A stretch of 64,000 nt of DNA, from positions 32,928,401 to 32,992,400 of the forward strand of contig CM120641.1 of the NCBI GenBank assembly GCA_051362555.1, given 5' to 3'. The notes under the pieces are model-generated. The model was not told the origin of the DNA. It saw nothing but the letters and a program-made list of their open reading frames with translations, and made no database searches. Shown here one piece after another: positions 19,701 to 47,184 of this stretch (position 1 is the first letter of the stretch; the number at the start of each line of letters is the position of its first letter). The DNA comes from Lingula anatina. Its lineage: Eukaryota; Animalia; Brachiopoda. Both the position numbers and the translations under genes were made by a program.

Positions 19701-22547
19701 TTTTCCATTTCTTAAACGAAGGTTGTTAATTACATATTTATGCAATAAATTATTAACTATTACATTAGTAATGACATTTCAATTGTTTCCATCTTTCAGC
19801 TCAGTTAGAAACTGCCCTAGGAAGTTTCTATGCCCCTGCCAGGCCTCTGACAGAAGCTGCAGTGCTGGAATACAGAGACCCAATCAGTAGATATGCAAGG
19901 AGATTCTTCCATCATTTATTAAGGTATTCTGTAAGGATTGGAAACAATCAGTTTTGTTGTGACAGTGTATGTTTTGACACATACAGTTGTTAGGTGTTGT
20001 TTCAGTCAATAAGGAATGAAAATTAAATCTCACAGTAGATAAGTTTCTGATGTTTGTCCCAAACCTCATCCTGTATGTATGTGCAAGTGTCCAGCATGAA
20101 GTTTTTATTGATAAAATTTTGATTTACAGACTAAGCAATATGTTTAAAACCACAGATAGTGGGCTTGGTGTAGTGGTCTATGGTGATCAGTTCACGTACA
20201 TTTAAATCATTTCTATATGTTTTATTGGTTTAATTTTTTCAGGTACACCAGGTTTGAGAAAGCATTTTTGCTGGCTGTTGATATTGGTGCCAGGGATCTG
20301 TTCATGGTAAGTTTAAATTGTAAAATCTTTGGTGTTAAGTTATCCCCATCACCACTTCTGTTATGCCTGAATAAAGAATAAAACAAAACTGATAACCACA
20401 GAAGCAAAAACCAAAGCAGTATATGTTTACAGTTTTGTGTCGTATTTATAAACTTATATCTAATTTTAAATTGTTATGGCCTGTCATCTTCACCTGCAGT
20501 TTTTAATTAATTTGACTTAATACACATATTGAACGAGACTTATTTTTATTTCTTGATCTCAGGACATTCATTACCTGGCGTCAGACAAGGGAGAGATAGC
20601 CCTAGCAGAGGTAGCAAAAAAGAAAGCAGACCAAATTGAAGTGGAGTCTATAGGGACTGGAACAGGAACAGGTGGGTCAATACGCAAGTTCACTCCAGGA
20701 AATAAGCTTAAGTGGCTAAGATGTCTGGCACGCCTATTTAAGCTGCTAAATGATAGTTAATTACCCCCTTACAGCTTTAGTAGGCATGCCAAACATCAGA
20801 GCTGCTTAAGCTGAAAGCAATTTAGCAAGAAAACCCTTGGAGATGGATCGATCCTGTTAGATGGATCTAGGTATGTGAATGAGGTCTAAGGGTTTAGATA
20901 CTATTATGTGTAACAGATGGCATGAAAAGAGCCATAGGCCATAGTTTAAGATATACCAGAGGTGAATTGGCCTTTTGTGTGTAAAGCAGATGTGTGTTTA
21001 GAAATTGTTAAATCATTGCCCTTGTTGTGAAGTTAAAATATAGAGTTGCAGCACAGCCAGATCAACATTTGATTGGGTGTTGGTTGCAAATGTGTTTTCT
21101 TCTGCGCAAACTAGACATATTGTACATGATCATCTCCATTGATCTGGAACATTTGCTTTTCTAGATAAATTTGCTATTTTAAAGATAGTGATATATTGTT
21201 TGTACTGAACCCCAGTAGTATCTGCTGTGTCATTAACTATTATGGATTTGACATAAACAAAAAATAATGAGACCTTGATTGTTACATGTATTAGGGAAAT
21301 TGAAATTGTTTCAGACACAGCAGAGTCTGTGGAGGAGGAGGACTTATCAGGGCCAGAAAATGACTTCCCACACCAAGAGAGAGCTGGGTATATTACCAGC
21401 TTAATGGAAAGAGAACAGGTATGATTAATGTACTTGACATGAAAAGAAACAATCATGCTGATGAAGAATAATTAAAGATGTAAAAGTTTTCTCTTTGGCA
21501 AAACGGCGAGGTTTTATTAGTCAGCTAAGGAAATGGGAAATGAATATCATGGACTGGAGTTGAGTCACAGGTTTTTTGGTGTTGTATTATAAATTATATA
21601 ATTAATGCGTAAATTATTTAGATAGGTAAACATTAATGCATGGCCAAGAAGGATGTATGTTTAAAATGAATTTTCTTTGCAGAGACAACAAAGAAGTGTC
21701 CAGCAAGGACATCACACTGTCCAAGATCACAGGGCCTATTACAGGTACTAGTATGTCTTCTTTGAGGTCAGCAATTTCAGTTGATAAAGGTGTATTTCTG
21801 ATGTATTGTATCCAGCATTCATATCCTCTGAAAATTAAATAATGAGGTTCTGCTTTCTTTGGCATCAGTTTGCACGTTTGTGGACAAAATATCTCAAATA
21901 GTTTTTAAAAATTTTTGCTGGTATTTTTAAGACAATTTCCCAAGAAGAATAGAAGTATAAATACAATTTCAACTGAATCTTAGATGCCTAATATTTTTCA
22001 AAAAATTTTCAGTTTCCCACATGTATTTTTGCATTTTCCATGGGTAAGATTTAGCATGAAAATCGGGTACAGAATACATTTAAGATATTCCTTTCTTCAG
22101 TGAAACTGCCAACAGTATTCCAGCATATAGCTATGAAAATGATCCAGTTTTGAATTCTGAGATGTACAGAGAGTATGCCTCGGCTTTCATGGATCCACAA
22201 GATCACATCTCAGAAGAAGAAGAAAATGTGGTGAGGATCTTTAAAAAATTTTATTAAGCATAGATTGCACACCTCCAAACAGAATCTTTTGTATCATTCT
22301 TTACTATTTAGTCATGAGAATTAATGATAAAGCTGGATAATAATTTGAAACATGAATAGCATGATTTTTTTTTAAACATGCAGTTATTTTTCCATTTTTT
22401 TCTATGATAAAAGAAGAAAAAAGCTTTATGTCATAATCCAACAAGACTTTTGAAATGCACAAATTATAATTGAACTTATAATTTATCTTCTAGGATGGTG
22501 ATGCCACTGCCAGCACAGTGAAAGTCATCCATTTTGGCTTAGTGTAA
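10709..22547 (+). CDS. WDPCP: WD repeat-containing and planar cell polarity effector (Fritz), multi-exon
   Basis: N-terminus MVSCLGELFIWTLKN; exons WTPKNRRPDRLRDSLKELE, DVEKIFIDKSLVGKL, LPGPVGRRLERR, VVLWWPTASEEAWPWSPMTSDRDRANLVVL, LEYRDPISRYARRFFHHLLR, FEKAFLLAVDIGARDLFM; C-terminus KVIHFGLV* (TAA 22545-22547). Confidence 0.95.
16530..16880 (-). mobile_element. Decayed Tc1/mariner transposase C-terminal fragment plus terminal remnant in a WDPCP intron
   Basis: Minus strand reads approximately IKGTCF..AIKRARMKEWRGIPEKSFQQCSEARQRRMQKDIRLKG, resembling mariner C-termini; a mariner-like end (..TTTCAGACACACCTC) lies at ~16815-16883 in the opposite orientation. Confidence 0.6.
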
Positions 22548-23957: not shown

Positions 23958-26740
23958 TTAGTCCACTTCTTTCCTAATTGTTTGGTCTGCATCAGGTTTT
24001 GATGTAATTGGTTGTTCAACAGCTACTTGGGTAACAGGGTTCTTTACTTCTTCCATATTATTTCCTGTGTTCTCCTGCATTTGGATGGCGGTGTTATCAG
24101 GGCTGGCTGCAGAACTTGCTAGATTACAGTTGTCCCCATGGATCTCTTTGATGGCTTGCTTTGTGGGAGGATAGCCTGGGTTTTGGCGAGGATGGCTTAC
24201 AGCTTCTGGGCCCTGACTGCTTTCCTGTTCACTCAACTGTCGCACAGCATGTTTAGGTGGTGGATATGCTGGGTTAGTAGATGTGGGCACTGCCAGCCCT
24301 TCAGTAGACGGATCATCAGTAGTATCTACACCTGCCAGCTTGCCTGAAGGTAAGTTGGATGCTGACTGCTGGGCATCCAACTGAGAAGATTCTCCCTCTG
24401 CACTCCTGATATTTTTCTGCAGATTCTGAATATCACTTTTTGATAAGGGTTGCTCTGTGTTTTCCATTCCTATACCAGCATCCTCTCCTCTGTTGTCCCC
24501 ACAGATCTCTTTGATGGCTTGCTTTGTGGGAGGATAACCTGGGTTTTGGTGAGGATGGTTTACAGCTTCTGGACCTTGACTGCTTTCCTGTTCACTCAAC
24601 TGTCGCACAGCACGTTTAGGTGGTGGATATGCTGGGTTAGTGACTGTGGGCATTGCCAGCTCTCCAGATGATGGACCAGGGGTAGCTTCCCCACCAGGTA
24701 ACTCACCTGAAGGTAACTGAGATCCAAGCTGCAGGGAGGCCAGTTGAGGAGTTACACTCTTCCCAATTTCATTATCACTTTCAGGTGAAGGTTTCTCTGT
24801 GTTTTCAACCCCATGTATCTCAGCTCCTTTACGCAATTCAGTTAGGTCATCTGTTCTTGGAGATCCTGTGTCTGATGTTCCAACTTTTTCCAAGCCTTCT
24901 GACTCCTCTACAGAGAGACCAAGCTTGCGCTGCTTACGATCACGATCATTTTTCTGGCTTAAGACAGCATCTCCGACTAATGTAGCAGAATTTGCCTAGA
25001 AAAATATTTCATTTTTACAGACATATTTTGGGAGAATTTAAGGACTAAAGTGACTAAAATTTCTGAAGAATTGTATTGTTATATAAGAAGACTAATACTT
25101 CCAAGAAAATATATTATCAAAGAACAAGTTGGTGAATTTAATGAAAAAAAAAAAAACAACAAAATACAGTAATGTTACCTCCTCTCCTCCCCCTTCTTGT
25201 TCCTCTGAAATTGCAAAAGAAAAAAAATGTAAATTAAATGTCTTAGATTGCATCTTTATCAATGTTAAGACAAACTAACAGCGTATTATTATCATGTTTA
25301 ATGTAAAAATACCTGTAACTTACCTATATCTATAGACAATGTGACACTTAATGTCTTCTTTTTGGTTCCATCATCACAAGATTTCTCCTGAAATAAATAT
25401 TTCAGTTTTGATGAAATTCTTATAAATTGGTAATATAGCTCTGATAAATTCCGAATCTGAAATGATTGTACTTGCCCTTGACATTGTCAAGATTTTCATT
25501 TTGATTCTTGCAGAGTACAACACAGGTCAATGAAACAAATTGCTGTTTCCCTTTCAGTACAAATATGCTACTTTATCAAAAATGGAAACATTTTTTTGGA
25601 TGACCCTATAATGCAACAAAATATATCAAACTATTATAGATGATAATGAGTGACTAAAAATAAAGAACAGTTATTCTTACTACTCACAGTTACTAGTATG
25701 ATAAACTTAAAAAGTAATTCACCTGGTACTTTTCCAGCTCATTCACTGATATTTCAGTTGGTAGCATAGTTTCCATGTCTATTGCCAGGCATTTAAGAAA
25801 AAGGTCTTGGGGATGAGGGTAATTGGCATCTTTTCTCAGTTTGGCATAGTAAATGGACTTGAAAGCTTCCTTCCACTCTTCTTTGGGAATTGAGGAGCTC
25901 TTGATGCAAAGTTTGTCTCTTTTATCAGCAAAAACAAATTTCAGAGATAGCGTGCCAGGTTCTGATACTCCAAACTAGCAAAAAGATAAGGTTCAGTAAA
26001 ACACTATTGCTGTGATAAACTATGTGCTGACATTTATTGTACAATACTGGTATTAATGTTTCACTGTGGTAGCATACAGACTCAAACCTAGAGGTTGTTA
26101 TATTACTGTGAAATCTACATAAGAGATATAATTTTTCTACACTCTAGAGGGCTTTGCTGTTAAATGTTTTGGAAGATACATTATCTTTTTGTAATTTTTT
26201 TCCATCTCAAGCCTTATACAAACCTGAAAGAAAAAAGTTCCTACTTCACGAGGTGGAAGCTCCAGAAAATGAACTAAGATCTTTTTCCCTTTTACTACAG
26301 GAAAATTCTGCAATTTAATATATATGATAATCTTATAGTTGGATAAATCTATAAAATGATTTATCATCTCTGAAAGGGGAAATTCTAACATTTTGAAACA
26401 ATCACACTTATCAAACTTATGAAAAATTTATGCATAATAATAAAAATACTTGAACAATATTGGAACATACATACTATACACTGTAAATGCACTGAGAAAG
26501 TAGCTGAAAATGTTAATTGTTACCTCAGTCTTCATCGACTGTAACAGTTTGCCTGTTTCTTCAAGATAGTGTTGAAACTGTTGAGGCTGGTTGTTGAATC
26601 TTTCACAACAAATTTGAAGAAGTTGACAGCTTATCCATTGATGAGAGAGATGATTGAATTGTTGTGAGAAGTTTTCTTGGAAATGTTTTATGTGTTCCTG
26701 GCAAATAATATGTAAAATATATGAAGGTTTTAAATATTTG

Positions 26741-26775
<35 letters not shown>

Positions 26776-27307
26776 GAAAACTAAAATTTCTTTTCTTTTA
26801 AAAAGTAACTTCAAGAACCCCTACTACTTTGCTCAAGCTGAAGTATAGGAAACAATAAAGGTGTTCAATAAATACAACCAATTTACAAGTGTAACTGTTT
26901 TTTTGAAATGTTAAAATATATCTTTAGATGTATACATGTAGATAGATAATGTATTATAATAATTTATACATCTATGTATTATGTACGCTAGTACCAGTGG
27001 TATTTTATATACACAATTAATTATGATGTCCCGCCTACATGCACGTAGCTGGATGTGTAAGTTGCACATGTTCTTCATATCATAAAGCAAATCATGGTTG
27101 ATCACCTGTTATTTAACAGTACAGATAAATATATGGTCCAAGTTGTAATCATAAGCATATCATACTATGATCATGGAATCTCAAACAATGGTATTCTATC
27201 GCTACAAGATAATTTATTAAGCATGGGTAAAACAACTGCATGTGAGTATACTTTTAAATTGAACAGCATGCAGTTGTATACAGACTTACCTGGATTATTT
27301 CCTCCAT
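23958..27307 (-). CDS. Uncharacterised protein: folded-looking N-terminal region plus a long disordered tail with a 121-aa internal duplication. Exons approx. 27290-27307, 26524-26697, ~26143-26223, 25724-25975, ~25324-25387, ~25179-25204, 23958-~24996
   Basis: MEEIIQ|gtaagt, EHIKHFQENFSQQF..SMKTE, VCIRLEMEKNYKK.., FGVSEPGTLSLKFVFADKRDKLC..LEKYQ, all with GT-AG boundaries; open terminal exon >300 codons. Junctions of the small middle exons are less certain. Confidence 0.7.
24130..24815 (-). repeat. Coding tandem duplication, period 363 nt (121 aa)
   Basis: TNPAYPPPK[R/H]AVRQLSEQESSQGPEAV[N/S]HP[H/R]QNPGYPPTKQAIKEI[C/H]GDN occurs twice (offsets 24597 vs 24234 and 24504 vs 24141). Confidence 0.95.
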
Positions 27308-27798
27308 TTTGATTTGAATATTTTCAAAACGTTTTTATATTATATTTAACACAGCGCGTGGAATCTGCCATGAACCATACGAAACTGGGTTTTTTTTACG
27401 TCATGCACCTTTTGTATTGTGTTTAGTTAGGGCATTTCCACGTCACTTTTCATACTGTCTTTACTTTCGGTCTCTTGTTGTCTGCATACATGAGTGCCAC
27501 TGTCAATAAGTCATTTGAAGTCCAAAACAACAACAACATCATATTATCCTAAATATTTAGTTCTTTATTCAACACTAATTAGCAATATACTTGTTTGTAT
27601 TCCAAGAAAGTGGCCTATCCAAGAAAGGGCCCCAAAAAGAAACACCATGGGAAATTCCCAGGCTATTTATAGCACGTACCAAAGCACCCAAGCGAAGAAT
27701 AGGGTGTGTTTCACTGTGCACAAATCCTGTTCCACTTAGCACTCGGTGTGTTTTGTTGTAAGGAAGTGTAGAATCTTATCACAGATTATATTTGAAGG
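27308..27798. promoter_or_regulatory. Divergent promoter with candidate NF-kB, CRE/ATF and IRF-like sites, a TATA box and a probable non-coding first exon of the downstream gene
   Basis: GGGAAATTCCC 27649-27659 directly before TATTTATA (~27664); GGGCATTTCC 27430-27439; TTACGTCA 27396-27403; ACTTTCGGTCTC ~27463-27474; splice donor GAAG/GTAGGT at ~27798. Confidence 0.6.
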
Positions 27799-28384: not shown

Positions 28385-31106
28385 ATGTCAGAATCGGTCC
28401 AAGTTCGCCAGCAGTTGTCTTCTGCATTGGACACACTCCGTCAGCTGATCAGCAATGGTGAGCTGATCTTGTTCCTGGGAGAACAGGCCTCATGTCTTCC
28501 ACAGCCGGCTTCCGTGAAGGACTGGTGGAAACACCTAGGGGACTTGGACAAAGAGGTAATGATTAATAAATATGTGAAAAATGAGAACAGATTTGTACTA
28601 AAATACTGATGGGCTTGAATTGTAAATTGTGTACATGTTATGGTATCAAAGCTTTTTGCTTTTATTATTATGGAATACATAACATTATGCTGTTATTAAC
28701 AATTAAAAATTGTTTGTATCATTTTATGTTCAAATTCTTTTTGTGTGTTATCATTTAAATTGAAAATAAAATTGTAAAATTTTATGTATTTTTAAAATGA
28801 ACATCTAAAATACTTGCAAAGATAAGAGAGTCAATGTTTTTTTTCAAAAGGGGAAACCTATGTATTAAGTCACAATATGATTTTAGACCCTATTATTATT
28901 ACAGGATCCAGTTAGCAAGATAGACCAGTTGGAGTCAAATATGAGAGAGAACCAGCAATGGCTGCACACCATCCTCAGAACGTTGGGCAGATTTCCCATA
29001 ATCTTCAATGTCAACCCTGACCGCCTGGTGGAGCACTACCTTATCAGACCAGGCGATAATGTCCAGACTGTTAGATTAGATAGGGTGAGCGCATGGGACA
29101 TTTCGTGGGGGAGCAATCCTTTATGGCGGATTCCAGGGGAGGGGGGCGGGATCAAGCAGACATGTGCCCCTCCTTGTAAGGTTCTGAGGTATCTCCTCAT
29201 TCTGCCCCCCCCCCCCCCCCCCCCCACACACACACACCACCTAAAAATATACTGTAATAAGCAAAATGATACAAACCCAATTTTTCCGTCCCTGTGTCTG
29301 ACTGTTAAACCCCCTTTACACCAGACGACGTCCTTTCTGCATCTTTTGTTCGACCATGAAACTGGCATGGCTGTGGTCGTAAAAAAGAGGCACAAGCATT
29401 GCTTTGGTTGCAGAATGAATGCTCAATGATCGGCCAGTTGTCAGCATGTAAAGTATTATGTTTTTTTTTACTCTCAAACAGGGCCATAATATACTACTGG
29501 ATGCAGAAAGGACATTGTCCAGTGTACGCAGGGGGCTTGAGTAAAATTTTGGCAAAATTGTGCATTCACCAGAGATTCTTGTTTGTTATAAATAGGAGTA
29601 GATATGGAATGTCTGGAAATATTTTATTTTTTTATTTCATTGTCTAGACTGTTAGATTATGTGTATACACACTTTGGAAATTATTAAATAATGATGATAT
29701 TTTTAATTGGTGTTAGAATTACTGTCTGTTATCAATGTATCAAAAATCAGTATATCAAAATTTTTCATGTCCAGGGTGAATTTTGTTCTTTTAATGGATT
29801 AAATTCTTTTAATGTCCATTGCAAAAAGAAAAATATCCATTTAACTAATGTGTCTTAATATTCTATTTTTTCTGGTTTATTTGAAAACTATGTAAATGTA
29901 TGTGAATTTAATTTTGGTTTATCTATCATTAAACAGTATTGAATAGATATTAAAATCCTGTTTTTAATGCTAGAAGTGATGGGAACATCTGAACTTAGTG
30001 TCTTGATATAATTTTACTTCTATTTTAGGTTGGAAGTCTGTCTGGTACATGGCCCAATGACCACAGAGTTCTGCTTATCAAGTGTTTTGGAGATGCTTCT
30101 TATGATGAAAAAGACAAGCTCACGGTAGGCATTTTTTACAATGAGGCTAACTTGTAGAACCTCTGTTTATTTTATGTTATTTTAAATTAAAGAAATAATT
30201 AAAAGATGTTTCATTGTAAATTAAAGTTTGTGATTTTCTGGCAAAAGTTTTCTGATCATAGTTTTACATTGAAAATATATTTTATTGTATTTTATTGTAT
30301 TTGTAATACTAGCTGGTATTTGAATTTATTGCAATTACAAATACCCCCATATGAAAATGTATGGATGAAGTAATATCTTCAAAAATTTCAGTCTGCTAGT
30401 AAGAACTACATGGAGACCTTTCACTCCATGGCATCTGAGGAAACAACATTTGTAGAAAACCTTTTCCACCAACACAGTATTCTGTTTCTTGGTTGTGAGA
30501 AAGACCACCCTCTACACAAAGCATTCATGGAAAGATTTGTGAAACATTCCAAGGTAACAATAAACTTCTTATAAAAGCTATGAAATTTGGTTTATGGGTT
30601 ATTATTGTAATAAAAAATAAACATTTGAGCTAGAAATTTCATGCAACTGATCATTATCATCACGCACACAGAAAATTAGTAAGACTCATCGTATTATGAT
30701 TCATAGACGTGTCTGGTGAATTTTGTGTGTTGATGACATTTTTTTCTTCATCCTTGGATATTAATCATATATTCCATTGATACATCAAGTTTTTCAGTTT
30801 TTCTTTGTGTATAGATTCGTCATTATACACTTATATTGAAATGATATTGAATTTTTGAGCTGAATTTACTGTAATTCAAAACAATTATTTTATTATTTTT
30901 TCTTGATTTATTTTTTAAAGGGTCAACATTATCTCTTTCAACGAGGAACCACATCAAGCTATTTCCAAGATGGCCATTTGACAACCATCCAAACAGACAT
31001 GGAAATCAATGAATTTGCCCAATATCTTACTCCAGGGAGTACAGAGTTCAAGATAAGGGCGCCTGGAGAGGTAGGCTTGAAGAGTTATTGATTTTTATAA
31101 TTTTAT

Positions 31107-31156
<50 letters not shown>

Positions 31157-34100
31157 TTGGTGTCATATTAATACGTAGCGTAAAAATGAAAATTATTCAA
31201 AATTTTATTAAGATATTCCAAATGATAAGAATATGAACAGAAGTTTAATTTTGGCACATGCATGCTTGAAGAGGGTCCTATTTGGTATTTTTGTTACCCG
31301 TGAAAGCCACCTTATATTTCCCCAAGTTGTGTGAATACAAAGAGTGATCTGTTAAGAACCCCATTCCCATCACCATTATTCTTCATTCTTGAAACAATGT
31401 CATCATACTCAGTGACCGTGATTTTCAACTGAATGATATATGAATAAAGTTTTATTTACTGTGGTTTCTGAATTGATGATTTTGGTTCCCATGAACTGTG
31501 ATCACTACCCCCCTCCCCCAAATGGGACCTTCCTTGAATGATATATATACCCTGTATCTTAAGACAAAAGCAGTCATGTTTATAGCAATCTTCAATCTCA
31601 TGATAAAGTAACTATCTGTTGTGCATTGTTGAAAATGAGTATAATTTGAAAATTTTCTTCTGTCAACAGCTAATATTGAAATAGTTTTTACCTCCAATAT
31701 TTCGATGTCTGGCAGAACATCTTCATCAGGTAATCGAAATATTAGAGGGTGGGGAGGGGGGGGGTAGAAGGATGAAAAAAATTGCCAGACCAAGCAAGTC
31801 AGATTATAGAGGAAGACACAGAGGACACTGAAAATTTTGCTGGTTTATTTAGGTTAGTTTTTTTATGGGGATTGGGGGGGGGGGGGGGGGCTGTTGCACC
31901 TCTTCCTGTGGCTCTGTCATTGTGCTTCCATAAACCAATGAAAGCTAACAATTTTTTGCAGGTGTATGAGCACTCCTACCTACCCACCCAGAGAGAGCAG
32001 TACTTAAAAGCTCAGTTAACTCTAGAAGCAGCAGCCTCTGAGATAGGATTCCATACAGCTAAAGTCACCAATGCTTTGGCCACAGATGAGGCACTAGAGG
32101 CAGAGTCAAGGGGAAACTTGGAGAAAATGTTTAAGAATGATCCCTTCAGTAAGTTATTGTTGTATCATATTTGTCTCAAAAATCTCCAACATGCATTACT
32201 TTTTTCAATTCATCCATTATAATTTTTATTATCCAGCAAACAAGTTCATCACCTCTATTATGCACCTTAAGTTAAACAGTTTAAATACTGTATATTTTTG
32301 CATGTATATATAAATGAAGTAAGTTGATTATAACCCTTCAATTTAAAGAACTTTAATCATATGTAATCTTTGTGTCCAGTACAAAAATTATGGTATATTG
32401 TTATTATATTAAATTCACAGTTGGACAATACGATGCAAGAACAGTGCAAGGAGCAATGGATGCCATGAAAGGAAGACGAGACAATTTATTGAAGGTATTT
32501 TGTATTATCATTCAATGCCAGTGACTCCCTAATGAATGCTTTAAAAGATATAACTATGCACCAGTAAAAAATTATGCCATGAAAAATGATGGCAAATCAA
32601 GTATATCTGAATTAACTTGCTGTTTATATGTTGTGCATTGTATCTAAAGGGAACTTGAAATTTATAACAAGTTATAAATTTTCATTTATCATGGTAGTAA
32701 TGAAAAATCTGCCAAAGCAATATTATAATATATCAGTAACACAGCTTTTGAATCGTATTTTTTTCCAGCTCATTCAAAATGGAGTAAGGGTGACAGCAAT
32801 CTTCAGATTTGACACTTTTGAAAAAGACATTGTTGATACCTCTACCAAAAAAGATGTCCGCCAGAGAAATGTGAGGAAATATGCCTCTGTTTTACTGCAG
32901 TCACGCTCTGTTCTAAATAACCAGAGTATGCTGGAGCTGAGAGTAGTGCAGGACATGAATGAAGAGCAGACAAAAAGAATGAAGGAACAGTATGCTGTTA
33001 TCAGATTGAAGGGTATGGGTTTTCTGTTGATTGTTTATTTGTTTAATATTTTATTCTATATCGAACAATTATATTGGTTTGTCATGAAATGAGAATGAGC
33101 AGTGCATTTGTGCATCGGTAGCATGAGGCCTGTAGCACAGTGATGGATTTAGGGGGGTGTCAGGGGGGGTCCTGACCCTCCCCCATTTGATTTCTGAAAA
33201 AAATCATACCAATGGTCCCCTCTTGAAATTAGAATTTTGACCAACTGCACCGTAGTTGTAAACCATACCAAATGGCACTGTTCACCCTCTAAAATGCCAA
33301 ATTTAAAAAAAGTATAAAAAAACATTTTCTTTTGATTTGATAACTGATTGCATTTTATATCCTATTACTTCCATTTCTTTTTAAGACAGTAATCTTATTA
33401 TTCTGACTTGTATTTTTAAGTTTCATTATTTCTTTAAGGTGCATTCAAAATAATGACTTGTCTCTACAGGAAGCTCTGATGAAGCTATTGCTTATGCCTC
33501 ACCTGCTGTTGAAGGCAAGAAAAATGTCAGCATCAATTTAATCAGTGTTAATGGTACTGAGGCAGCCAGAAAGCGTAAGATATTTGAGGAAAGCAGAGAA
33601 GCTGCGTGGGACCATGAGAAGTCCATGTTGAATCTGACCACTGCACTGCTGCAAGCTGATGAGGAACTGAAAGCCATCAGTGTATGTCATAAAAGTTCAT
33701 AAGTCATTCTTGTTCATGCATTGGTAAAGTTAGTAAGTGAATATATAACAATTTAATCACCCCAATTTAATAATTAAATAAATAAATATGGTAAGACAAT
33801 TTGACAAATGATGTATTAAGTCATGGATATCTCTTATATTTTTAGACGGAAGACAGAAATAAACTTCAAAGGCTTTACAATGTCCAGATGTTGACAAAGA
33901 CTGAGATTGAACCTGGGACATGGGAGAAGCTGGGTGAAGGAAGCTTTGGTGCAGTGTTCAAGGTACAGTGGAAAGGAAAAGAAATGGCCTACAAAGTCTT
34001 GCAGAAGATATCAAAAGCAGATGATCTGGAGGAATTTGAAGGAGAATACCAGAGCTTGAAGTAAGCTTTTGTTCAACATCCTCTTTTCTGTTTGAAAAAA

Positions 34101-37100
34101 AAAAACTAATAACTTTCAGACTTGTATTTTATTTAATTTTTCAACATGCCATAACTTGGGTTTGAAAAAATGCATGTTTTTTTCTCTTTTGCAAAAAAAA
34201 ATAAACATTTTTTTTCTATTTTCAAGGAAAATTCATCATCCTAATATCATCTCTGTAGCAGAGATGTACCGCACAGACAATCCCATACAGTTAGGTATTT
34301 TGATGGAGTACATGTCAGGAGGCAGTGTCAGGGATGTGATGAACAGGAACCCAGGTCAAGGTCAGAGCAAGGACTTTGTCTCCAGGCTAGCCATGCAAGT
34401 AGCGTGTGCTTTGGATTATCTGCATTCCCTGAAGCCAGCCATCATACACAGGGATATTAAGGCAGATAACATATTTGTAAGTTTTGTGGTTGCAGAAATG
34501 GTGCTGGGGTTCCTAGTCACAAGCTTTAATTTAATTTTTTTTCATTTTAAATATTGAAATAAACTTGGGAAATATTAAATGGAATAGATATCAATGAAAG
34601 TTACATTTGATAAAAATATGCTTATTACCACAGAGAAATAAGCATGGTGCATCGGTATATACTTAAAAAAGTGAAAACTTTGAAAGACGAAAAAGACTGG
34701 TTTTTCATTGTCTCATGTGTAAAGATATTTTTAAAATATTTTAAAAGTAACTGTAAGCTTTTTTTGCTGCGAGGGCCTTTGATGAAAGGTTGAAATGCTG
34801 TGCCTCACAGGTAAAAACATGTACATCCTCTTTGGAAATGATTTTTAAGAATTGAAAGGCAGTTGAATTGCTGTCAGGCATAAGAAGCAATCAGAAACTT
34901 GTCAAAACAATAGTTGTCCACCTGAATGTAGTGGCTACATGTAGTTTCTTGTCCACTCTGGCTGAGGCAAACCTCAGTTAGACTGACAATTTTTAATTAT
35001 TATGTAGGGATGTATGTAAAATGTATGTTGAAATTAATTCAGTCTACAATGGCTCTATGTAAAATTCCAGTAAAATGGAAGTGGATCAGTAATGTTCTGT
35101 CACTGGTTACAGTAACTGCTTCTGGTCTGAGCTAGGAGATTCTTAGACCCCATTCCCATAGATTTTAGATCGATCTATCCCTGTGAGGAGTCTCACTAGA
35201 TTACTATCAGCTCAGCCGGCTTAAGCATCTGTCCCGCCTACTTAAAGCTGTTAGGGGGTAATTAACTATGGTGCCTGCTCGGCTGACTGCAATTTAGCCT
35301 GAACCCCCAGGGAGTTAGGTCGATCTAAATCTAAATCTCTGGATCGATTTAAATCTGTGGGAATGCACCCTTAGACCCAGCTTTTGACCCTAGACCCGAA
35401 ATTTTGGCCAGTAGGATAAAAAAAGGCACCTTTTAGCTATGCTTGGTTGATATTCATTGAACAATTATTTAGAGTACATGTACAATTTGTTCCAGAATGA
35501 TGCAGAGTTCATCCTTTTTTTCCAGATGACAGCAGACAAACAGACCTTCAAGTTGGGTGACTTTGGTCTTTCAAGGATTACCTACAGTACATACCAGACT
35601 AAGACCATGGGCTGGGGCTGTTACCGCTACATGGCACCAGAGATGGGAAGAACACAAAAATATTCACCCAAAGTAGATGTATATGCTTTTGGTGAGCTTA
35701 CATTGACAAGGATTTGGATTGAATGCATATCTCTGTAGATATATTAGTTTAAAAAATAATTTAATCAATTTTACCAATTTATCTTTATTTTGATGGAGGA
35801 ATTTGACAAAAATGATTTTATTGGCAAATTAGCTTTAACAGATACTTTCATCTAGTATGTCATTCTAACTTTGGGAGCATCAAGTAAGCTGTCTGATTAA
35901 GGCCCTTTGATGAAGGGTCGAAATTTCATGCCTTACAGAACATGATAAGTCTATGTAGAAACAATTTACTTTTTCATCATTTTCATCTTGTTATCAGGTC
36001 TGCTGTTGGTGGAGGTGATTACAGGCAATATAGCATTCAGTGAAATAATGGACAACAGTGAAGTGTTCAAGAGAATAGCTGCTGGTCAGCTGCCGGTGGA
36101 AGTGCCAGTAAGTGTCATAGAAATCAACATTGTACAGACTCAATTGTGAGACAGTGGTATATATCAGATTTAGGATCTTACTAATGGGTGCAGAAGTTTT
36201 TTTTCTTTTTGTCATATAAAAGACTAAAGTGTGCTGTTTATCTTGAAATGCATTTCCTGTCTTAATAAATGCTATATTTGGTTGTTTAACCTATCCAGGA
36301 GGAATGTGAAAAAGTCCATGGTCTCCAGATGAAGGCCACCATATCTGCCTGTGTCATTGCCAATTCTAACCTGCGGCCTAAGATGGAGGATGTCATCAAG
36401 ATGTTACAGGGAAAGCTGACAAAGTTTCAGAAACATGAAGAAGTGGAGCTGCTTTGTCTGGGAACTGGAAAAGGGGCAACTGGTATTTTTTTTTCCTCGA
36501 TTAAAGTTTTTTTATATTTCAATTTTTTATTTTGGTTCTGAATGAACACACTTGCCTTAGACATTTATGAATTCACATATTGAAAGAAATGTGATTGTTC
36601 AAAATCTTCTGAAAAGGGGGATGGAGTTTAATTGATAAGAGTTTTCCAGAACAAAGAGCATCACATGATTTATACTAGTATGTCAGTCTTGCAGTTTTAT
36701 TTCTTTATGATTTCAGCTGTTCAGGATGGAGAGCCCAGTTCTTCTTTTGTCATTCTCCACAATGGCAAACCTGTACTCCTTGTTGATATAGGTTACTTGG
36801 TCATGATGCAGTACCAGCAACTTGTTGGTAAGGGAGTCAATTCTGTTTCACATCTGTTTGACAGTTGACTTTATATCATAAAAATTCCATGCCATTCAAT
36901 AACCTAATCTTAAATTAATTTTAAGACATTAAAAAGCAAATGTGAGTCCATTTATAAGAATGCCTTTATTTGAGCAAAATTTAAGAAATAAATGTAAAAT
37001 TTGTTGGGATATCTCAGTTATTTAGTATTGCAAACTGCATTGTAGGAAATTTAAAGTGATATGTATACAAAAGGTTTGACGTGTTAAAAATAGACTTTCA

Positions 37101-39145
37101 GGCACATCAGTGACATACTGATTCTAAATGTCATCTTTAAAAAAGGTAAGATTTTCCTTCTTATTTATAGGCAAAGAACCAGTTTTCAACATGTTCATTA
37201 CCCACAACCATTCAGACCATGCTGGTGAGCTGCCCGTGTCTATGTGTATATTTGTACCCACATTGATGAAACGGGGTTACACCAAAAGTCCCTTCAAGAT
37301 CTTTGCTGGATCAGAAACTATGCCAAAGCTGATAAATCACAGAATGGATGAGGCTTACTCTATGCCAGGTCTTAATGATCACGTATGTGTAACAACTTTA
37401 TAGTTGTTTTAAAAAAAGTAAATTGTTTCAACGATTCATGGTTTTATTGGTGTGATCAAGAGCCTTCTGTGAAGAATAAAATTTGCCATGCCCATGGGAC
37501 ATTTGTGTCATGGGGAATTTTCTTTTTATTACCAGTAATAGACGGTGTTTGATCTACCTTATCTAATTGGTTTTGGTGACTTTAAATTTGCAGAAAAAGA
37601 TTGCTGACTGGCGGATATGTTCCCCAGGAGAGAGGGAGACCATTGGTGATAATGGCCTGTTTTCCTTGGAGACTGTTAAAAGTCAACATTCAGAAGTTGG
37701 TTATGGTGAGTCTTTTGTTGCTCCTCTTAATGTCAAAATTTTTGGGAGTTATTGTTTATGATGAAAGTAAGTAAAATGGTCAGAAAAGACGAATGTGTAA
37801 TATTTAAGGTTATATAAGTAAATTTAAGTGTATCCAATATATTTTTGTTTAAGGCGACATTCATTAAAAATGTAAAATTTTACAAAATACATGTAGTGGC
37901 CATTCTCAATACTGATATCTGCACTGCATTCATATGTTATTTATTTAACCACATACTCAAAGACCCCATTCCCATAGACATCATTGGTCTATGTAGATTG
38001 ATCCAACTCTGTGGAGACTCTTGCTGAGTGCGATCAGCTTAACTGAATGACACGCTTTCTATTGTTTCCAATGTATTCATATAAATACCAGCTTATCTGT
38101 ATTCTACTCAATGGTAGGAGGAGGCAGTAATTCATTTAAGCTGACTGCGCTCAGCAAGAGTCCCCACAGAATGGGATCGATCTATGTAGACCTATAGTGT
38201 ATATGGGAATGGGGCCTAACTACTTCTGACACCACATTTCAGGGTTTGTGCTGTACTACAAAGGGTCTCCAATACTGGGCTACTCCGGAGACTCTGGTTT
38301 TGTCAAGGAACTCTATGACAAAATATACGAAGCTCCAACAGTGATTGTCGATGGCAGAGAAAGAGGCACTTGGGAGCATGCAGGAGTAAGTGATATTTAC
38401 TCAGAATCAAATCATACATTTTCATTGGGCCGTAGCTATGGTGTCATGGAGAAATATTAAGATAAAGATGTGCATTTCATTTTGTAAATACATGTAGCAA
38501 TTTCAGTCAGTGGTTTGGTCTCATATAAGTATGATAAGTCAATTATTACTAATTTTGCAAACATTGAAATATGGCTTATTTATGTATTTTCAGTTTGACG
38601 AAATTAAGGAATATACCAAAACTAGCAAGGTAAGGATATTCCAGAGGGCTGTTGATCATTCTTTTAAGCATCTTTTAAACTAGAAATTAACAGATTGCTT
38701 GTCTTTTTGAAAAAAAGTCACTTTATTCAAGGGTTCAATATTTAAGACTCCTCAAGTGAGAGTACACTCTAAAGAAAATTAATGAGAAACTTGTATGTTG
38801 TTTTCTTAAATAATATGTTGTTATTAACTGATATCTTTTTAATGCTGTTTTTTATTGTCATGTGACATTTTTAAAATCCTTGCTCTAAAAAATGTACATA
38901 CAATTTAGCACGAGTTTGTGTATGTTACTGGATATGGAGCACCCCGAGAGTCACCTGGTGACAAGTACCTCCCATCCATCAAACCACTTGAGATTGGTCA
39001 GCAGTACCCCTTGGTGTCAGCGGGTCAAATGGCTGATGGGCAGGGTCCAGACCCTGCTGGCCAGGGAACAGGCGACATCCACCCTGGCAGTGGACAAGAG
39101 CAATATCCTACACCTCACAAGGCAGTGCAGAGTCTGGGGCAGTGA
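28385..39145 (+). CDS. ~1,080-aa multidomain protein: SIR2-like (SIR2_2/FAM118-type) domain - unknown domain - Ser/Thr (TKL-like) kinase - MBL-fold hydrolase. Exons 28385-28555, 28905-29084, 30029-30124, 30392-30553, 30921-31070, 31962-32148, 32421-32494, 32769-33012, 33470-33681, 33846-34060, 34227-34476, 35526-35691, ~35998-36107, ~36299-36482, ~36716-36827, ~37171-37382, 37594-~37705, ~38243-38385, 38594-~38629, 38909-39145
   Basis: Phase-compatible GT-AG exons without stops. SIR2-like: ELILFLGEQAS..W, IIFNVNPDRLVE, LLIKCFGD, LFHQHSILFLGC. Kinase: LGEGSFGAV, MAYK, HPNII, MEY, HRDIKADN, DFG, YMAPE, DVYAFG, RP. MBL: LGTG, LLVDIG, THNHSDH, QHSE, YSGDSG, EH. Kinase C-terminus and MBL N-terminus lie in one exon (36329-36482 ORF). 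Confidence 0.88.
31110..31156. repeat. (AAT)n microsatellite
   Basis: Tandem AAT run. Confidence 0.95.
35146..35370. mobile_element. MITE family B (PIF/Harbinger-like)
   Basis: Ends GACCCATTCCCATAGATTT ... AAATCTGTGGGAATGCACCC with TTA flanks; internal sequence shared with ~20700-20890. Confidence 0.65.
37962..38217. mobile_element. MITE family B (PIF/Harbinger-like), long palindromic copy
   Basis: ~80-bp imperfect inverted arms GACCCCATTCCCATAGAC..GAGACTCTTGCTGAGTGCG / CGCTCAGCAAGAGTCCCC..TATGGGAATGGGGCC; fragments near 31358 and 51780-51855. Confidence 0.75.
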
Positions 39146-42440: not shown

Positions 42441-43198
42441 CGAGAAACTCTTCAAGAAAATTAAAATAAATTAAAAGAAATTTAAATAATATATTTGAAA
42501 GTCAATAACCACTTGATGTGTCCAATTTGCATTGCTACATGTCATTTATGTCAACTACAAGCTTTTCTAACTGTCGTGACACAACGTTGACAGACTTTAG
42601 CTCTAATGAGATCACACATAGTTAGTTAAGTTAGTTTTATTCCCATTCAATGGGAACAGCTATTATTATAATATACAGGTTTTACCAATATTTAACAAAT
42701 ATTGAGCCAAACAAAGTCTTATATATTTACATAGGCCCGAAATTCAAGCACTAGAAATGTTATTCAAATGTTAACAATATTTAATTGAAGGCTGAGACAA
42801 AACAAAGTTCACAAAATTCCCTTACATTTTTTCTAGATATAGGTACTCAAAGTGCAATGTCTTTAATTGCTATTTTAACATGTTAAAACACGCGGTTGTC
42901 AGTATGAAGCTATAACCACTCAGCTATGACAGCGCTCTGGTCATATATTTAAAATATTTTGATATGTCGATTCATTTGTTATCCATTTATTTCTTATATA
43001 TGCTACTGTCAACGTGCTATGTTATTTTTTAAAAATAAAACCAGACGATACTGATATCACGATCCTCGATACAGTCAAGATGTTTCCTTTAACGTATTTT
43101 ATTTTGCACAATGTCTATAACAACTATAATCAGTGCAAACCTGGCAACGCATCACGTTTTATCTGGTTTGGTACATAGTAAAACATGCATTATGTTAA

Positions 43199-46100
43199 CT
43201 ACAGAAATGTCATCGTGCTTGACTGAAACGTGTAAGGCCGTGCCGATCCTTCGATGCGCCGCCGTTTACAGTTCAAACTTTTTTCATGCATTTTCAGGAT
43301 TTCTTCAAGTCTTTCTTTCTCTTCCCGAAGTTTTTCTATTTCATACCTTTGGCTCTTTTCTTTACCCTCTTCACGCAGCTCTTCCTGCAATCGGAATAAC
43401 GCAAGTAGTTACAAAGTAAGGCAGGCTCGGTGCAGAAAAAGAAATTTGACAAGTTCCTGCAATATATAACGTGCGTATTAAAACCGCAATGGACAAATTT
43501 ATCCATTATTTTGATCGAGATTGATGTACTTTTCCGGCACTACTGATGTCGGAATTATTTATTTATTCAGAGATCTGCTTCAAAATTCATCTCCATATAT
43601 AATGCCATGATGAATAATGCCATGATGATCTCAAAATAACATCATTTTTGTTTGTTTTTTTAATAACTTTGAATTTATTAACATTAATCAGTCACAAACC
43701 TCGCTTCATTTCAAAGAAAAAAGGAAAGCAAATTACTTCCTTTGCTTTGACTAAAAATATATTTGAAAATACATTAACTTCACCTGCATGAGAGAGTACA
43801 TTTTTTCCTTCTGCTTCTTTCTGCACTTTTGTGCTGCCTCCTTGTTTTTAGCTCGTCTTTCTTCTAAAAATGGTCCATCTTCCTTGTTTTGCTCCAAAGC
43901 ACCCTGAAACAACATGGTAACGGTACACATTTTAACTGAGCCACAGAAAAAGATACTCAAGGAATACATGAGGAACTTCTTTCCTGAGTTTGTTTTATTG
44001 AAAATTCCTTTGAAATACGAAAATGATGGATGATAAATGAAAATAAAAGATATTGAGTAAATATCGGGGCAGTCGTGGCCGAGTGGTTAAGGCGACAGAC
44101 TAGAAATCTGTTGGGGTCTCCCCGCACAGGTTCGAATCCTGTCGACTGCGGTGCTGTTTTGTTACTTACAGAGTGCAAAGAGCCGCAGGGTATGTGCCCC
44201 CCCCCCCCCCAACATATATAAATGTCACCTTTTAAGTTTGTTTTTACTGGCGACTCCTTTAAAATACTAAATGCTGAATCAATTCGGGTTCTTTTTGCTC
44301 TAAAAAACAAAACGTCATGTAGTCAACAGAGCAGTCGGCGACAGACTAGAAATCTGTTGGAGTCTCCGCGCACAGGCTCGAGTATTGTCGTCTGTGAATT
44401 TATTGTGGATTGTACATTGGCCTATGAGCCGCGGGGGATCTGAAGGGTTAACCCTTCCCACCCACCCGCGCACACACACGCACGGACACACATACACGCA
44501 CAGTTTTCTTTCAATCTCGGCAGTCCTAAGTACAGGAAACAAGGAGTCACAGGCTGATGTTTCACTTCATATTCACAGTTACTTTTCTGGTTAAACAGTA
44601 ATATATTATGCATTATTTTGTACTAGTGAAATTTTGCCTAGAATTGACGGTATCACTCAGCTTGAAACTGGTAGACAGTGTGGGCTAAAGGCATTGTCAA
44701 CCCTTTAAAGATGAATGTATACTTCATTAAAAAAGTCAATTTACAGAGTGGTCCATAAAAAAGAACCTATTTTACTTTCCATCTCAATTTTGATACAATA
44801 AATATATTACTAACTTTCTTTTACCAAATTTTTCTACAAGGATGACCGTTTTACTCTTGCAAATTCTGCAAGAAAGTTGGAAATATCTTAATTAAATGTA
44901 TCTCAAAATTGAGATGGAAAGTAAAATAGATGCTTTTTGATGGAACACCTTTTAGATCGTGGACAGAGACCACATATGCTATCTTCATTTCTAAAGAATT
45001 GTCAACAATATGTACTGATTGTCGTCGTAAAAATAAAAATATATCATCTTATATAGCATATTGACGGACAATTTTATCGTCGTAAACGTTCAATTCAAAT
45101 AATAAAATGGAGTGTCCTGTTTGCACAAATCACTGTTTTTCTCAAATTCCTACTACGATGACCAGTCACAAAACCATTTAGAATGCGAGAAAGTTATTTT
45201 AAGTGGACTTTTAATGTTTGATTCGATTCACTTCATCTTTTTGATTTAAAGATTCAGTCTTTTTAAAAACGTAACTTAATGCTGTTGGAAACTGATTTTG
45301 TAGGCAAAATAAAACCAAATTGTTTGGTTTTAAATGCTACTGAATGGAAAGCAAGGTGAAGTAAAAAAAAAATTGACCTTTCTTATATTCTCCATCATCA
45401 CATACAAATGAAATTCATTCAAACATGCACGTATTTGCACCTCAGCATACATCTGCAGGCTGACACCCCAGTCAACCAATGCCCAAGTTCGCGATCAAGC
45501 AAAGGTAACATTTCACAAGCTATATTTCTCGTTGCATGAATGCAAGGTTTCTGGCGCGAAATGCAAAATAAATGGTTTAATAATCACTTTGTTTCCTTTC
45601 GTTTAACTTGACATTTTCTTTTCGTATTGGGTTTTTTGCTGAACTCATGCTTTTTCTGTGTTTCCAAAATGTCTATCCAGTAAGCTTCCGCATACTTGCA
45701 TTCTATTAAATATCGCGCGAGCGTTTGGGAAATTACCTGTCTCGGTCACGTGACAAAAAATTCCCCTGACTAGTTATTTTGGGGACTCTTACAATTGGTC
45801 GTCATGGCCGGGAACGTAAATCAGTACTTAAACCTTTCATGTTTTTAATGTGAGTCAATTGTGGTAACTGAAAATTTTTACTGATTTACAGAAACCAAAA
45901 TAGTTAAATACAGTATGGACGCACACAAAAAAGGTCTTTGCGAAGTAATAATTAAGTAACAATTTAACAAACTCTTTGTTATAATGCCCTAATTAAAATC
46001 CCCTTTTTAAAATTCCCCCTTCTCGAAATATCTTGGTCGAAAATCCCCCTTCAAAATGACTGTGAAATAGCTTAGAACCTCTAACAGCGCCAAGTTAAGG

Positions 46101-46330
46101 CGTAAATCAAAAAAAATTTTAAATAGCCATTTTACGCTTTGTAAGCCTCTTTAAACCATATATTTTATCTTTAGCTTCGACCACAAACATGAAATAATCA
46201 TATGTAGGCAGCATGAAAATTTTGCACACATTTAGAATTAGACCTATATGAAATGATCACAGTAGGGCCTATAATATCAAAGCGTTTTGGGGGCCCACCA
46301 AAATGTTTCGCACGTCAAAAAAAAAAAAAA

Positions 46331-46369
<39 letters not shown>

Positions 46370-46723
46370 AATAAAATAAATAAATAAATAAATGATAATA
46401 ATAAATAAATAAATAAATAAAATAAAAATTACCGTTTCAATTTTTTCCAGCACGATTGGAATAGGCCTATCTCCTTGCCCAGATGAGTACCTACGATGAA
46501 GTATGGAGAACTTCAGTTCCTCTTTGACAATTGCACTGCTATTGCCTTCTTCTAGAGCTAATACATTTGCCTCCTCAAAGTCGATGCTCGAGCTGAAAGT
46601 GGGAAGATCTGGCGTCTGTGGTGTGGTGACACTTGGTCCAGCAGGATTCCAGTCGGTTTCCGTAGCATCACTGCTGAAGGTGCTGCAATCGCTCGAGTTA
46701 CTTGCAATTTTTTTACGTGCCAT
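43199..46723 (-). CDS. ATF3/JDP2-like (AP-1 family) bZIP transcription factor. Exons 46433-46723, 43784-43903, 43199-43384
   Basis: VKEELKFSI motif (cf. ATF3 VKEELRFAI), basic region RRAKNKEAAQKCRKKQKEK with the invariant Asn and Arg, zipper ending L..L..H; phase-0 GT-AG introns. Confidence 0.85.
44069..44150 (+). tRNA. tRNA-Ser (anticodon AGA)
   Basis: 82 nt; acceptor stem GCAGTCG/CGACTGC, A box TGGCCGAGTGG, anticodon stem ACAGA/TCTGT with loop CTAGAAA, long variable arm, B box GGTTCGAATCC, TTTT terminator at 44157. Confidence 0.95.
44331..44396 (+). pseudogene. tRNA-Ser(AGA) pseudogene lacking the D arm
   Basis: GCAGTCG joined directly to GCGACAGACTAGAAATCTGTTGG; A box deleted and B box mutated (GGCTCGAGTAT). 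Confidence 0.85.
46330..46425. repeat. (TAAA)n microsatellite
   Basis: Tandem AAAT run at the start of bZIP intron 1. Confidence 0.95.
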
Positions 46724-47118
46724 GGCACGGCGTTCTCATGTGGTGTCTCTATTCGCAGTTCTAAATATAAGATGCAGCGTGTCGTATGACGATCGGCTGG
46801 GCGATCACTATGTAATGTTGACAAAGCTGGTTACATGTGGCCACGGTTGACACTCAAATGACCGGCTGCTAGAAGGTTATAAGATCACAGTATTTGAAAA
46901 ACCGATCGTTTATACAGGTAAAACTATCTCATTCTCATATGCAAAGTGAATTAGTTGGACCTCCGCCTAGGAATATAATCGAATAATGACACGCCAGTTG
47001 AGGGTCTATTTTTAGAAAGGGGCTTTCCATAGTTTTGTTTATTTTGTTTGTTACGAAGTTAAAGGAGCCACTTAGACACATATTAATTATATTTAATCTA
47101 TACTTTGACATCCATAAA

Positions 47119-47120
<2 letters not shown>

Positions 47121-47178
<58 letters not shown>
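47121..47178. repeat. (TA)n microsatellite
   Basis: Dinucleotide run upstream of the bZIP gene. Confidence 0.95.

Positions 47179-47184
<6 letters not shown>

Follow-up and report, generated by a model that had tools for sequence, protein, structure and literature searches.

The stretch of DNA considered here (the window) comprises 64,000 nucleotides from the brachiopod Lingula anatina (assembly GCA_051362555.1, contig CM120641.1, positions 32,928,401 to 32,992,400 of the forward strand), and positions below are those of the window. One spliced, expressed animal gene within it encodes a protein of four domains: a SIR2-like domain whose catalytic site has degenerated, a middle domain predicted to have the phospholipase D (PLD) fold, a protein kinase, and a metallo-beta-lactamase-fold (MBL) hydrolase. 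Since relatives of the parts that flank the kinase are encoded side by side in one bacterium, the protein is likely a bacterial defense switch rewired so that it signals through a kinase. A fuller account must be more tentative: with somewhat less than an even chance, the protein may be a ligand-gated kinase provided with an MBL that degrades the signal, descended from a bacterial SIR2+PLD/MBL module.

A single spliced gene and its animal orthologs

As foreseen in an original prediction made from the sequence of the window, 20 exons combine into one open reading frame. Joined by script on the forward strand from 28385 to 39145, they give 3,252 nt, encoding 1,083 amino acids plus a stop, with no internal stop codon, and every intron runs from GT to AG. 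The spliced leader carries an in-frame stop 5' of the ATG at 28385, and because this stop is brought by an upstream non-coding exon, that ATG is taken to be the start.

Transcription was judged from raw short reads, taken from six runs labeled as the same species and mapped on the gene region. They support at least 16 of the 19 introns. Introns 1-10 appear as joints within reads (intron 3 with one base differing at the joint), intron 11 as a loose end of 31 reads that run on into exon 12, and introns 13, 15, 16, 18, and 19 are among the matches listed (intron 16 with one base differing); introns 12, 14, and 17 are not among them. As introns 1-11 are all backed by RNA, the chain of neighboring exons is unbroken from the N-terminus into the kinase, though short reads cannot prove a single full-length transcript. 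The junction of kinase and MBL lies, as had been predicted, inside one exon (exon 14). Reads over exons in the stranded runs (X1, X2, and X4) have their first mate on the reverse strand, which means RNA of the forward strand. Depth is low, from a few to about 20 reads, and expression is found in all six runs. Differences from the window at many positions show that these reads come from other individuals or populations. A candidate exon of 60 bases (31670-31729) was dropped, as reads splice from 31070 directly to 31962.

A HMMER search with exon 16 led to a crinoid protein (P0009, Anneissia japonica XP_033107533.1, 713 aa), partial, with 39% identity along 707 residues that span the middle region, kinase, and MBL; the top match of that search (P0008) was discarded as a repeat artifact, and a word-based protein search with the same exon gave no match. 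The crinoid MBL used as a query, over proteins of 392-1,248 aa, returned three proteins among 861 candidates, P0009 itself included. The other two are full-length orthologs, from the hemichordate Ptychodera flava (P0020, XP_070571493.1, 1,078 aa) and from the sponge Corticium candelabrum (P0021 and P0022, XP_062509470.1 and XP_062509469.1, 1,061 and 1,131 aa). The predicted architecture thus recurs across animals, at full length in sponge and hemichordate and in part in the crinoid, and Pfam recognizes its components domain by domain: Pkinase in the window itself, and SIR2_2, kinase, and MBL in both the hemichordate and sponge orthologs.

End to end, the animal orthologs are 37-41% identical (38-50% per domain). 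The window protein shares with hemichordate and sponge, respectively, 40 and 38% in SIR2, 50 and 41% in the middle domain (the best conserved against the hemichordate), 43 and 38% in the kinase, and 43 and 40% in the MBL. The orthologs are named in databases 'uncharacterized protein' or 'CSK-like'. This distribution is a lower bound, because the search was word-limited. An architecture common to sponge and hemichordate is old, if it was inherited vertically.

No published description of this architecture, or of a protein combining SIR2 with a PLD-like domain, was found in full-text, largely non-subscription literature. Among the fusion partners given in a survey of SIRim proteins of eukaryotes are NACHT/NB-ARC with repeats and Macro, and its supplementary tables and figures may list the present proteins; main-text passages of PMC13069673 and 10.1101/2025.09.30.679545, concerned with the discovery of defense systems, make no mention of the architecture.

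Relatives of both ends of the protein adjoin in one bacterium

Exon 16, compared with a genome collection, finds bacterial MBLs of about 230-290 aa, and at 14 of the 16 loci the alignment extends over most of the domain. The closest, 46% identical to the MBL of the window, is in a Thermoanaerobaculia genome (locus L001). Next to its gene, facing it and overlapping it by 24 bases, is the gene for a SIR2_2 protein of 534 aa (P0001), which aligns with residues 52-474 of the animal protein, i.e., SIR2 plus middle domain (24% over 440 residues, phmmer E 3.7e-18). None of 1,000 shuffles of the animal N-terminus reached the score of that alignment. Metagenomes supplied six further SIR2+PLD members, and a profile of all seven scores 77 bits against the animal model. 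The Thermoanaerobaculia genome has four more SIR2_2 loci, three of them without a match and one with a weak match (E 0.003). Directly upstream of the first MBL is another member of its family, with a ribosome-binding site of its own, and the MBLs of this island are 43-46% identical to that of the animal. The three-gene stretch, near the end of its contig, has a GC fraction of 0.47-0.54, against 0.59-0.71 in its flanks.

Both families are rare. The genome collection contains 21 strong MBL loci; the PLD-like half is found in one of 301 genomes of the phylum and the MBL family in one of 401 genomes of the class of genome G001. Because of this rarity, it is very unlikely, by estimate rather than computation, that relatives of the two ends of the protein are neighbors by chance. 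The link to parts of bacterial defense type, drawn originally from the window, is stronger than could be seen there, now that SIR2+PLD and MBL genes are found adjacent.

Scans for more SIR2+PLD loci returned the same contig only. Matches in plasmids (39 records) are to SIR2 only, reach no farther than residue 341, and in no case cover 80%; neither plasmids nor viral contigs gave an MBL of the family. PADLOC returned generic SIR2 and kinase matches alone, with no match for the MBLs. A complex prediction for the bacterial SIR2+PLD protein and the first MBL scored 0.00, which provides no verdict and is used neither way.

Other MBL loci have contexts of their own. A second conserved context is seen in Thiomicrorhabdus and Rhodobacteraceae, where a protein of about 215 aa, itself conserved but unmatched in Pfam, comes after the MBL (Table 1). 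A locus in Chloroflexota (L040:4632-8720) has a gene of 1,089 aa for a kinase-ATPase-TPR (tetratricopeptide repeat) protein 43 bases upstream of a family MBL, an independent pairing of kinase and MBL (the ATPase label comes from a Walker A motif). At L022:2112-3681 there are tandem MBL paralogs, one with and one without a signal-peptide-like N-terminus, and upstream of the pair is a remnant that we take to be recombinase-like.

A SIR2-like domain without its catalytic histidine

Pfam SIR2_2 is passed by the hemichordate and sponge orthologs (52 and 43 bits, cut-off 24.5), and exons 1-5 of the window, compared singly with Pfam, gave no match. Against a profile of the bacterial relatives, the window's N-terminus scores 20.9 bits, where the best of 500 shuffles scores 4.0. 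Of the SIR2_2/FAM118-like identity first proposed for the N-terminus, the SIR2_2 (SIRim) type holds by profile; the FAM118 type does not, the protein having a second, PLD-fold domain in common with a different bacterial family. The best matches to a structural model of P0001 (pLDDT, the predicted local distance difference test, 63) are ThsA (Z 11.3), KomBC (10.1), and FAM118B (9.7), with root-mean-square deviations (rmsd) of 4.5-5.3 over 223-249 residues, and a sequence profile of the bacterial SIR2 ranks KomC and FAM118B first among solved structures.

The bacterial domain retains GAG, TSNYD, and HG. The animal domain is altered. The loop after strand 1 reads GE in all three animals (GEQ, GEG, and GEE) as against GAG in the six bacterial proteins that reach the loop, and K[VI]HGD, present in seven of seven bacterial proteins, has become KCFGD in three of three animal species. 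The bacterial KVHGD aligns with KomC H146 and with the HIHG motif of FAM118B. Within the portions seen of the two reports, H206A abolishes the nicotinamide adenine dinucleotide (NAD)-cleaving (NADase) activity of FAM118B/SIRanc (10.1101/2024.09.18.613514), and H206, N163, and W65 are placed at the NAD site (PMC12700824). Other features are kept in the animals: N94 (at the position of FAM118B N163 and ThsA N112), D96, G138-D139, and FLGC. With the catalytic histidine lost and GAG changed to GE, the animal domain is likely not an NADase, contrary to the type of domain first envisaged. Judged from the alignments, it would be a pseudo-enzyme fixed early.

A middle domain of predicted PLD fold, and a complete kinase

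The middle region, about 240 aa, had been called unknown. It has no match in Pfam by sequence, but scores 57.1 bits against the profile of bacterial relatives (best of 500 shuffles 3.2), and a fold can now be assigned. The assignment rests on a model of the bacterial copy rather than of the window's own domain, folded with 15 alignment rows that included animal sequences (pLDDT 89.7, predicted template modeling (TM) score 0.87). A wide structural search placed SauUSI first (Z 12.4, rmsd 3.1, 155 aligned residues), followed by NucT (11.6), the DUF1669 domain of FAM83B (Z 11.1, rmsd 3.5, 147 residues), TrmBL2 (10.9), Nuc (10.9), and TrmB (10.3), and Foldseek concurs. The first row that we did not recognize as PLD-fold, with membership presumed from titles and known folds, stands at rank 29 with Z 4.2. 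The ESM Atlas groups the domain with DUF5753 of XRE regulators (TM 0.71). The PLD motif HxKxxxxD occurs in none of 14 sequences, and ten polar residues are the same in bacteria and animals (R264, Y267, Q271, E275, T285, T289, N290, R334, N337, and N449). By this modeling, the middle region is a PLD/Nuc fold without HKD, similar to TrmB, FAM83, and DUF5753. The TrmB domain binds sugars. FAM83 domains bind CK1 kinases, according to the portion of PMC6008594 seen, and DUF5753 is given no function in the portions seen of PMC10364602 and PMC8939145. The behavior of the TrmB and FAM83 domains is the source of two readings of the middle domain considered below, as a sensor and as a scaffold.

The kinase, of the Hanks Ser/Thr type, was predicted to have all catalytic motifs, and it does in all four animals: Gly loop, VAIK lysine, alphaC glutamate, HRDxKxxN, DFG, and APE (in the window K542, E559, HRDIKADN 638-645, DFG 659-661, APE686, D698, and R765). 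Several solved kinases score similarly, at 88-98 bits (MLK, NEK7, STK25, CDK-like, RAF, and bacterial StkP); the best, at 98 bits, belongs to MLK and the tyrosine kinase-like (TKL) group, and there is no close subfamily among solved structures. A search of bacterial genome G001 for the source of the kinase gave 30 generic matches, the best at 93 bits and none outstanding.

An MBL resembling cyclic-nucleotide phosphodiesterases

The metal site of the MBL had been read as an intact HxHxDH followed by H, D, and H. The motif (H849, H851, D853, and H854) stands, as do H940 and D962; the last ligand does not, its position being occupied by Gly1013. H991 is kept, but it aligns with an earlier histidine of Apyc1 (in 'HAS'), not with the final one. 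The final position among the 25 family rows listed reads GYG in seven (the four animals plus three others), HY in four, and GHG in 14. In Apyc1, the final histidine is a ligand of the second metal. Perhaps the family binds the second metal differently, or is weaker.

A profile of seven family members finds as its best solved matches 7T28, BA1088, and two chains titled Apyc1, and its matches to Apyc1/YhfI-like chains have E values of 1e-11 to 1e-5; RNase ZS1, PNGM-1, and RNase Z rank after them. (7T28 is titled 'putative metal-dependent hydrolase', and we take it to be Apyc1.) The kinship to Apyc1 and RNase Z-type enzymes that had been suggested is therefore borne out, in that order. In the part of PMC9117128 available, Apyc1 is a homodimeric class II phosphodiesterase that hydrolyzes cyclic mononucleotides, its HxHxDH holds two zinc ions, and E74 and Y112 are needed. 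By its profile matches, the present MBL is best regarded as a separate, Apyc1/YhfI-like subfamily of likely phosphodiesterases. Of a related MBL subfamily, exon-sized fragments (P0012 and P0015-P0017) occur in large clusters (155 and 18 members), apparently from intron-containing genes.

A tree of the MBLs (27 rows, omitting four of the 21 strong loci, L003, L034, L035, and L039; the row labeled P0013 is P0018) resolves hemichordate with crinoid as the sole animal grouping. A tree of SIR2 domains, with two outgroup rows and no FAM118 row, is too thin to root. Neither tree gives a direction of descent.

How the protein may work and where it may have come from

ThsA operates like KomBC. In the KomBC filament, according to the portion of PMC13454610 seen, a nucleotide bound by the enzyme-fold partner remodels the filament and switches on the SIR2 NADase. 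By analogy with KomBC (and with ThsA), the bacterial SIR2+PLD-like protein would be a ligand-gated NADase effector and the neighboring MBL a regulator that removes the signal. In the animal protein, the PLD-fold domain would be the binding site of a small signal that carries phosphate, and the SIR2-like domain, no longer cutting NAD, would bring subunits together. Kinases so clustered would activate one another, the kinase replacing the NADase as output, and the MBL would probably break the signal down. The animal lineage would have inserted the kinase and let the NADase site decay. Descent from bacteria to animals seems the simpler direction, as the site is intact in bacteria and decayed in animals. 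The data show how the gene is built and expressed, what folds its domains have, which residues were lost, its orthologs, and a single bacterial locus. Ligand binding, assembly, activation of the kinase, activity and substrate of the MBL, direction of descent, and a role in immunity are what we infer in this scheme.

Several observations weigh against it. The linkage was seen once: a SIR2+PLD gene is near one of the 21 strong MBL loci (five of which have short flanks), and none of five other MBL-bearing genomes has a SIR2+PLD protein. The two bacterial genes face each other rather than forming one operon, the downstream MBL of the island begins with what appears by eye to be a signal-peptide-like stretch, and beside neither locus was a signal synthase seen. 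In all four animals, the MBL has no final canonical histidine, Apyc1 E74 is not kept at the aligned position, and five proteins score 25-39 bits where the cut-off of the NCBIfam cyclic-nucleotide phosphodiesterase family (NF041851) is 400. The MBL tree resolves the animals neither as one clade nor as sister to the island MBLs. Finally, the small helical subdomain of the animal SIR2 is shorter by about 40 residues, and variants in the RNA change residues at 12 of 20 positions in the SIR2 part (28385-31070) as against three of 16 in 31059-37382 (Fisher p 0.019, over 36 exonic variants among those listed), an excess that relaxed constraint would explain as well as a new role would.

Other explanations can be considered. 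The original prediction likened the protein to RNase L: the N-terminal half would be the sensor and the kinase the relay, with the MBL as a nuclease or hydrolase effector switched on when the kinase dimerizes. A single exon does join kinase and MBL directly, the solved relatives of the MBL include RNase Z and RNase ZS1, the Chloroflexota kinase-ATPase-TPR gene is directly upstream of a family MBL, and MBL domains act in antiphage systems, e.g., HamMAB (in the part of PMC13069673 seen). Yet the best matches of the MBL are short cyclic-mononucleotide phosphodiesterases, not RNases, its final histidine is gone, and a kinase is near only one of 23 bacterial MBL loci. Moreover, the kinase of RNase L is a pseudokinase, and the one here is complete. 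The fusion of sensor, kinase, and hydrolase remains, but since the MBL has no canonical histidine and most resembles enzymes that degrade signals, an MBL effector is only one option, and we consider it unlikely. About equally unlikely is that the dead domains are protein-binding surfaces, the PLD fold docking or restraining the kinase, in the service of ordinary signaling or metabolism rather than immunity. FAM83B DUF1669 is the third-best fold match and the pseudo-PLD domains of FAM83 dock CK1 (PMC6008594, as seen in part), expression is at a low level in every run, and neighboring genes are of housekeeping type (by names presumed from motifs). Against a scaffold, a sequence homolog of the PLD-fold domain occurs in bacteria, fused to an intact SIR2 and with no kinase, so the residues conserved in it are older than the kinase. 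A patchy occurrence among animals, thinly sampled as they are, is likewise in keeping with defense genes, which are prone to loss.

Two explanations concern SIR2 in particular. It might bind NAD+ or ADP-ribose uncut and report depletion of NAD to the kinase. N94, D96, G138-D139, and FLGC are kept, and selection is suggested by the identical change of histidine to phenylalanine in three distant animals. However, the glutamate that replaces alanine in the glycine-rich loop of all three animals would be expected to repel the phosphates of NAD, and the small subdomain has lost its 40 or so residues, so a sensor of this kind is quite improbable. Or SIR2 might still be an NADase of altered mechanism, the protein being a conventional SIRim effector with accessory domains. 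The orthologs do pass Pfam SIR2_2, and the asparagine is kept, but H206A abolishes the activity of FAM118B/SIRanc (10.1101/2024.09.18.613514, seen in part), and the aligned residue is phenylalanine in each of the three animal species. We give this last explanation very little credence.

Bolder than the ligand-gated kinase with signal-degrading MBL that we favor, and rather less probable, is the possibility that a hitherto undescribed bacterial defense system, in which an HKD-less PLD-fold sensor controls a SIR2 NADase and an Apyc1-like hydrolase is the further component, was captured whole before sponges and bilaterians split and became a single-chain immune receptor. Sensor and signal-degrading enzyme would have been kept, the NADase silenced, and a kinase inserted, and bacteria and animals would have a second messenger in common. 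Known animal heirs of bacterial SIR2 defense proteins keep their NADase; the four-domain family appears to have done the opposite. If so, it would be a clear case of a bacterial effector turned signaling receptor, and it would point to a new sensor domain (a PLD fold without HKD) and a new signal. The bacterial three-gene island offers a small system in which to find the ligand and function, which might then be applied to the animal protein.

Features and surroundings of the gene

Coordinates are collected in Table 1. Head-to-head with the four-domain gene, about 450 bases from its non-coding exon, is a gene of no known family on the reverse strand (~23958-27310). Several of its exons are small, the last spans 345 codons and contains a twofold internal repeat, and Pfam gives no significant match. 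Related short copies of an inverted-repeat element, likely a miniature inverted-repeat transposable element (MITE), occur in intron 11 (35146-35368) and intron 17 (~37970-38210), with a read depth of several hundred that comes from other copies. Farther off, at ~5100-20000, are exons that we presume to be of a cytosolic malate dehydrogenase-like gene (reverse strand), head-to-head with presumed WDPCP/fritz-like exons (forward strand), an arrangement known from vertebrates. Exons at 43000-62700 we take to be bZIP (ATF3/Fos-like), COA6-like, and NAA30-like. The same region has a long interspersed nuclear element (LINE) with a frame of 1,227 aa for a presumed endonuclease-reverse transcriptase.

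Table 1. Features of the four-domain gene (window positions) and of one bacterial context (locus positions)
Feature	Position	Strand	Basis
Upstream non-coding exon, 3' end	27789..27797	+	Donor GT 27798 to acceptor 28373; the nine bases head the loose end of 28 reads before 28381
Exons 1-5	28385-28555, 28905-29084, 30029-30124, 30392-30553, 30921-31070	+	Model and RNA joints
Exons 6-9	31962-32148, 32421-32494, 32769-33012, 33470-33681	+	Model and RNA joints
Exons 10-14	33846-34060, 34227-34476, 35526-35691, 35998-36107, 36299-36482	+	Model
Exons 15-20	36717-36827, 37171-37382, 37594-37705, 38243-38385, 38594-38629, 38909-	+	Model
Degenerate SIR2_2 (SIRim) domain, exons 1-5, aa ~15-240	28385..31070	+	Profile of bacterial relatives; Pfam match of orthologs
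Gly-rich loop G32-E33-Q34 instead of G-A-G	28478..28486	+	Alignment with bacterial relatives
Phe137 at the catalytic-His position of SIRim NADases (KomC H146, FAM118B H206; ThsA H152)	30086..30088	+	Alignment
Predicted PLD/Nuc-fold domain without HKD, end of exon 5 plus exons 6-9, aa ~250-480	31059..33645	+	Profile; fold searches of bacterial copy
Ser/Thr-type protein kinase, exons 10-14, aa ~515-778	33912..36415	+	Pfam Pkinase and motifs
Exon 14, aa 740-800	36299..36482	+	End of kinase and first MBL strand in the same exon (sequence)
Short metallo-beta-lactamase-fold hydrolase, exons 14-20, aa ~786-1035	36437..38998	+	Identity to bacterial MBLs; profile
HxHxDH metal motif, H849-H854	37203..37220	+	Kept in 25 of 25 family rows listed
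Gly1013, aligned with the last His of Apyc1 ('MHYG')	38930..38932	+	Alignment
Gly/Pro/Gln low-complexity tail and stop codon	38999..39145	+	Tail not conserved in orthologs
~215-aa protein after MBL	L004:3594-4238, L009:3507-4163		Equivalents in L002, L006, L008, L010, L012, L013

Comparison with known systems

KomC, ThsA, and FAM118B come closest in fold to the N-terminus. Like Thoeris ThsA (SIR2 with SLOG or Macro) and Kongming KomBC (a HAM1-like sensor with the SIR2 protein KomC), the animal protein follows SIR2 with a second enzyme-fold domain devoid of its catalytic motif. It differs in that the second domain is predicted to be PLD-fold rather than SLOG, Macro, or HAM1, the catalytic histidine of SIR2 is gone, and a kinase and an MBL are fused behind. 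With FAM118A/B (SIRanc/SIRal, of animal SIRim clade A), it shares a domain of the SIR2_2 family in which TTN-like and FLGC motifs align; FAM118B, however, is a single-domain NADase (H206 and D255), and the window protein has phenylalanine at the position of H206 and three further domains.

The MBL resembles the class II cyclic-mononucleotide phosphodiesterases Apyc1 and YhfI, with which its HxHxDH, His, Asp, and 'HAS' motifs align, but it is far below the NCBIfam cut-off, has glycine in place of the final histidine, does not keep E74, and is fused to a kinase. The middle domain would have the same fold as the effector-binding domain of TrmB, DUF1669 of FAM83, and DUF5753 (Z 10-12, rmsd 3-3.5 over 130-155 residues), likewise without HKD, but it has no Pfam match, and its fusion partner is SIR2, not a helix-turn-helix. 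RNase L and IRE1 are similar in layout only, with a sensor region, a kinase, and a C-terminal hydrolase in one chain; the animal protein has no ankyrin or lumenal sensor, and where they end in a KEN ribonuclease, it ends in an MBL.

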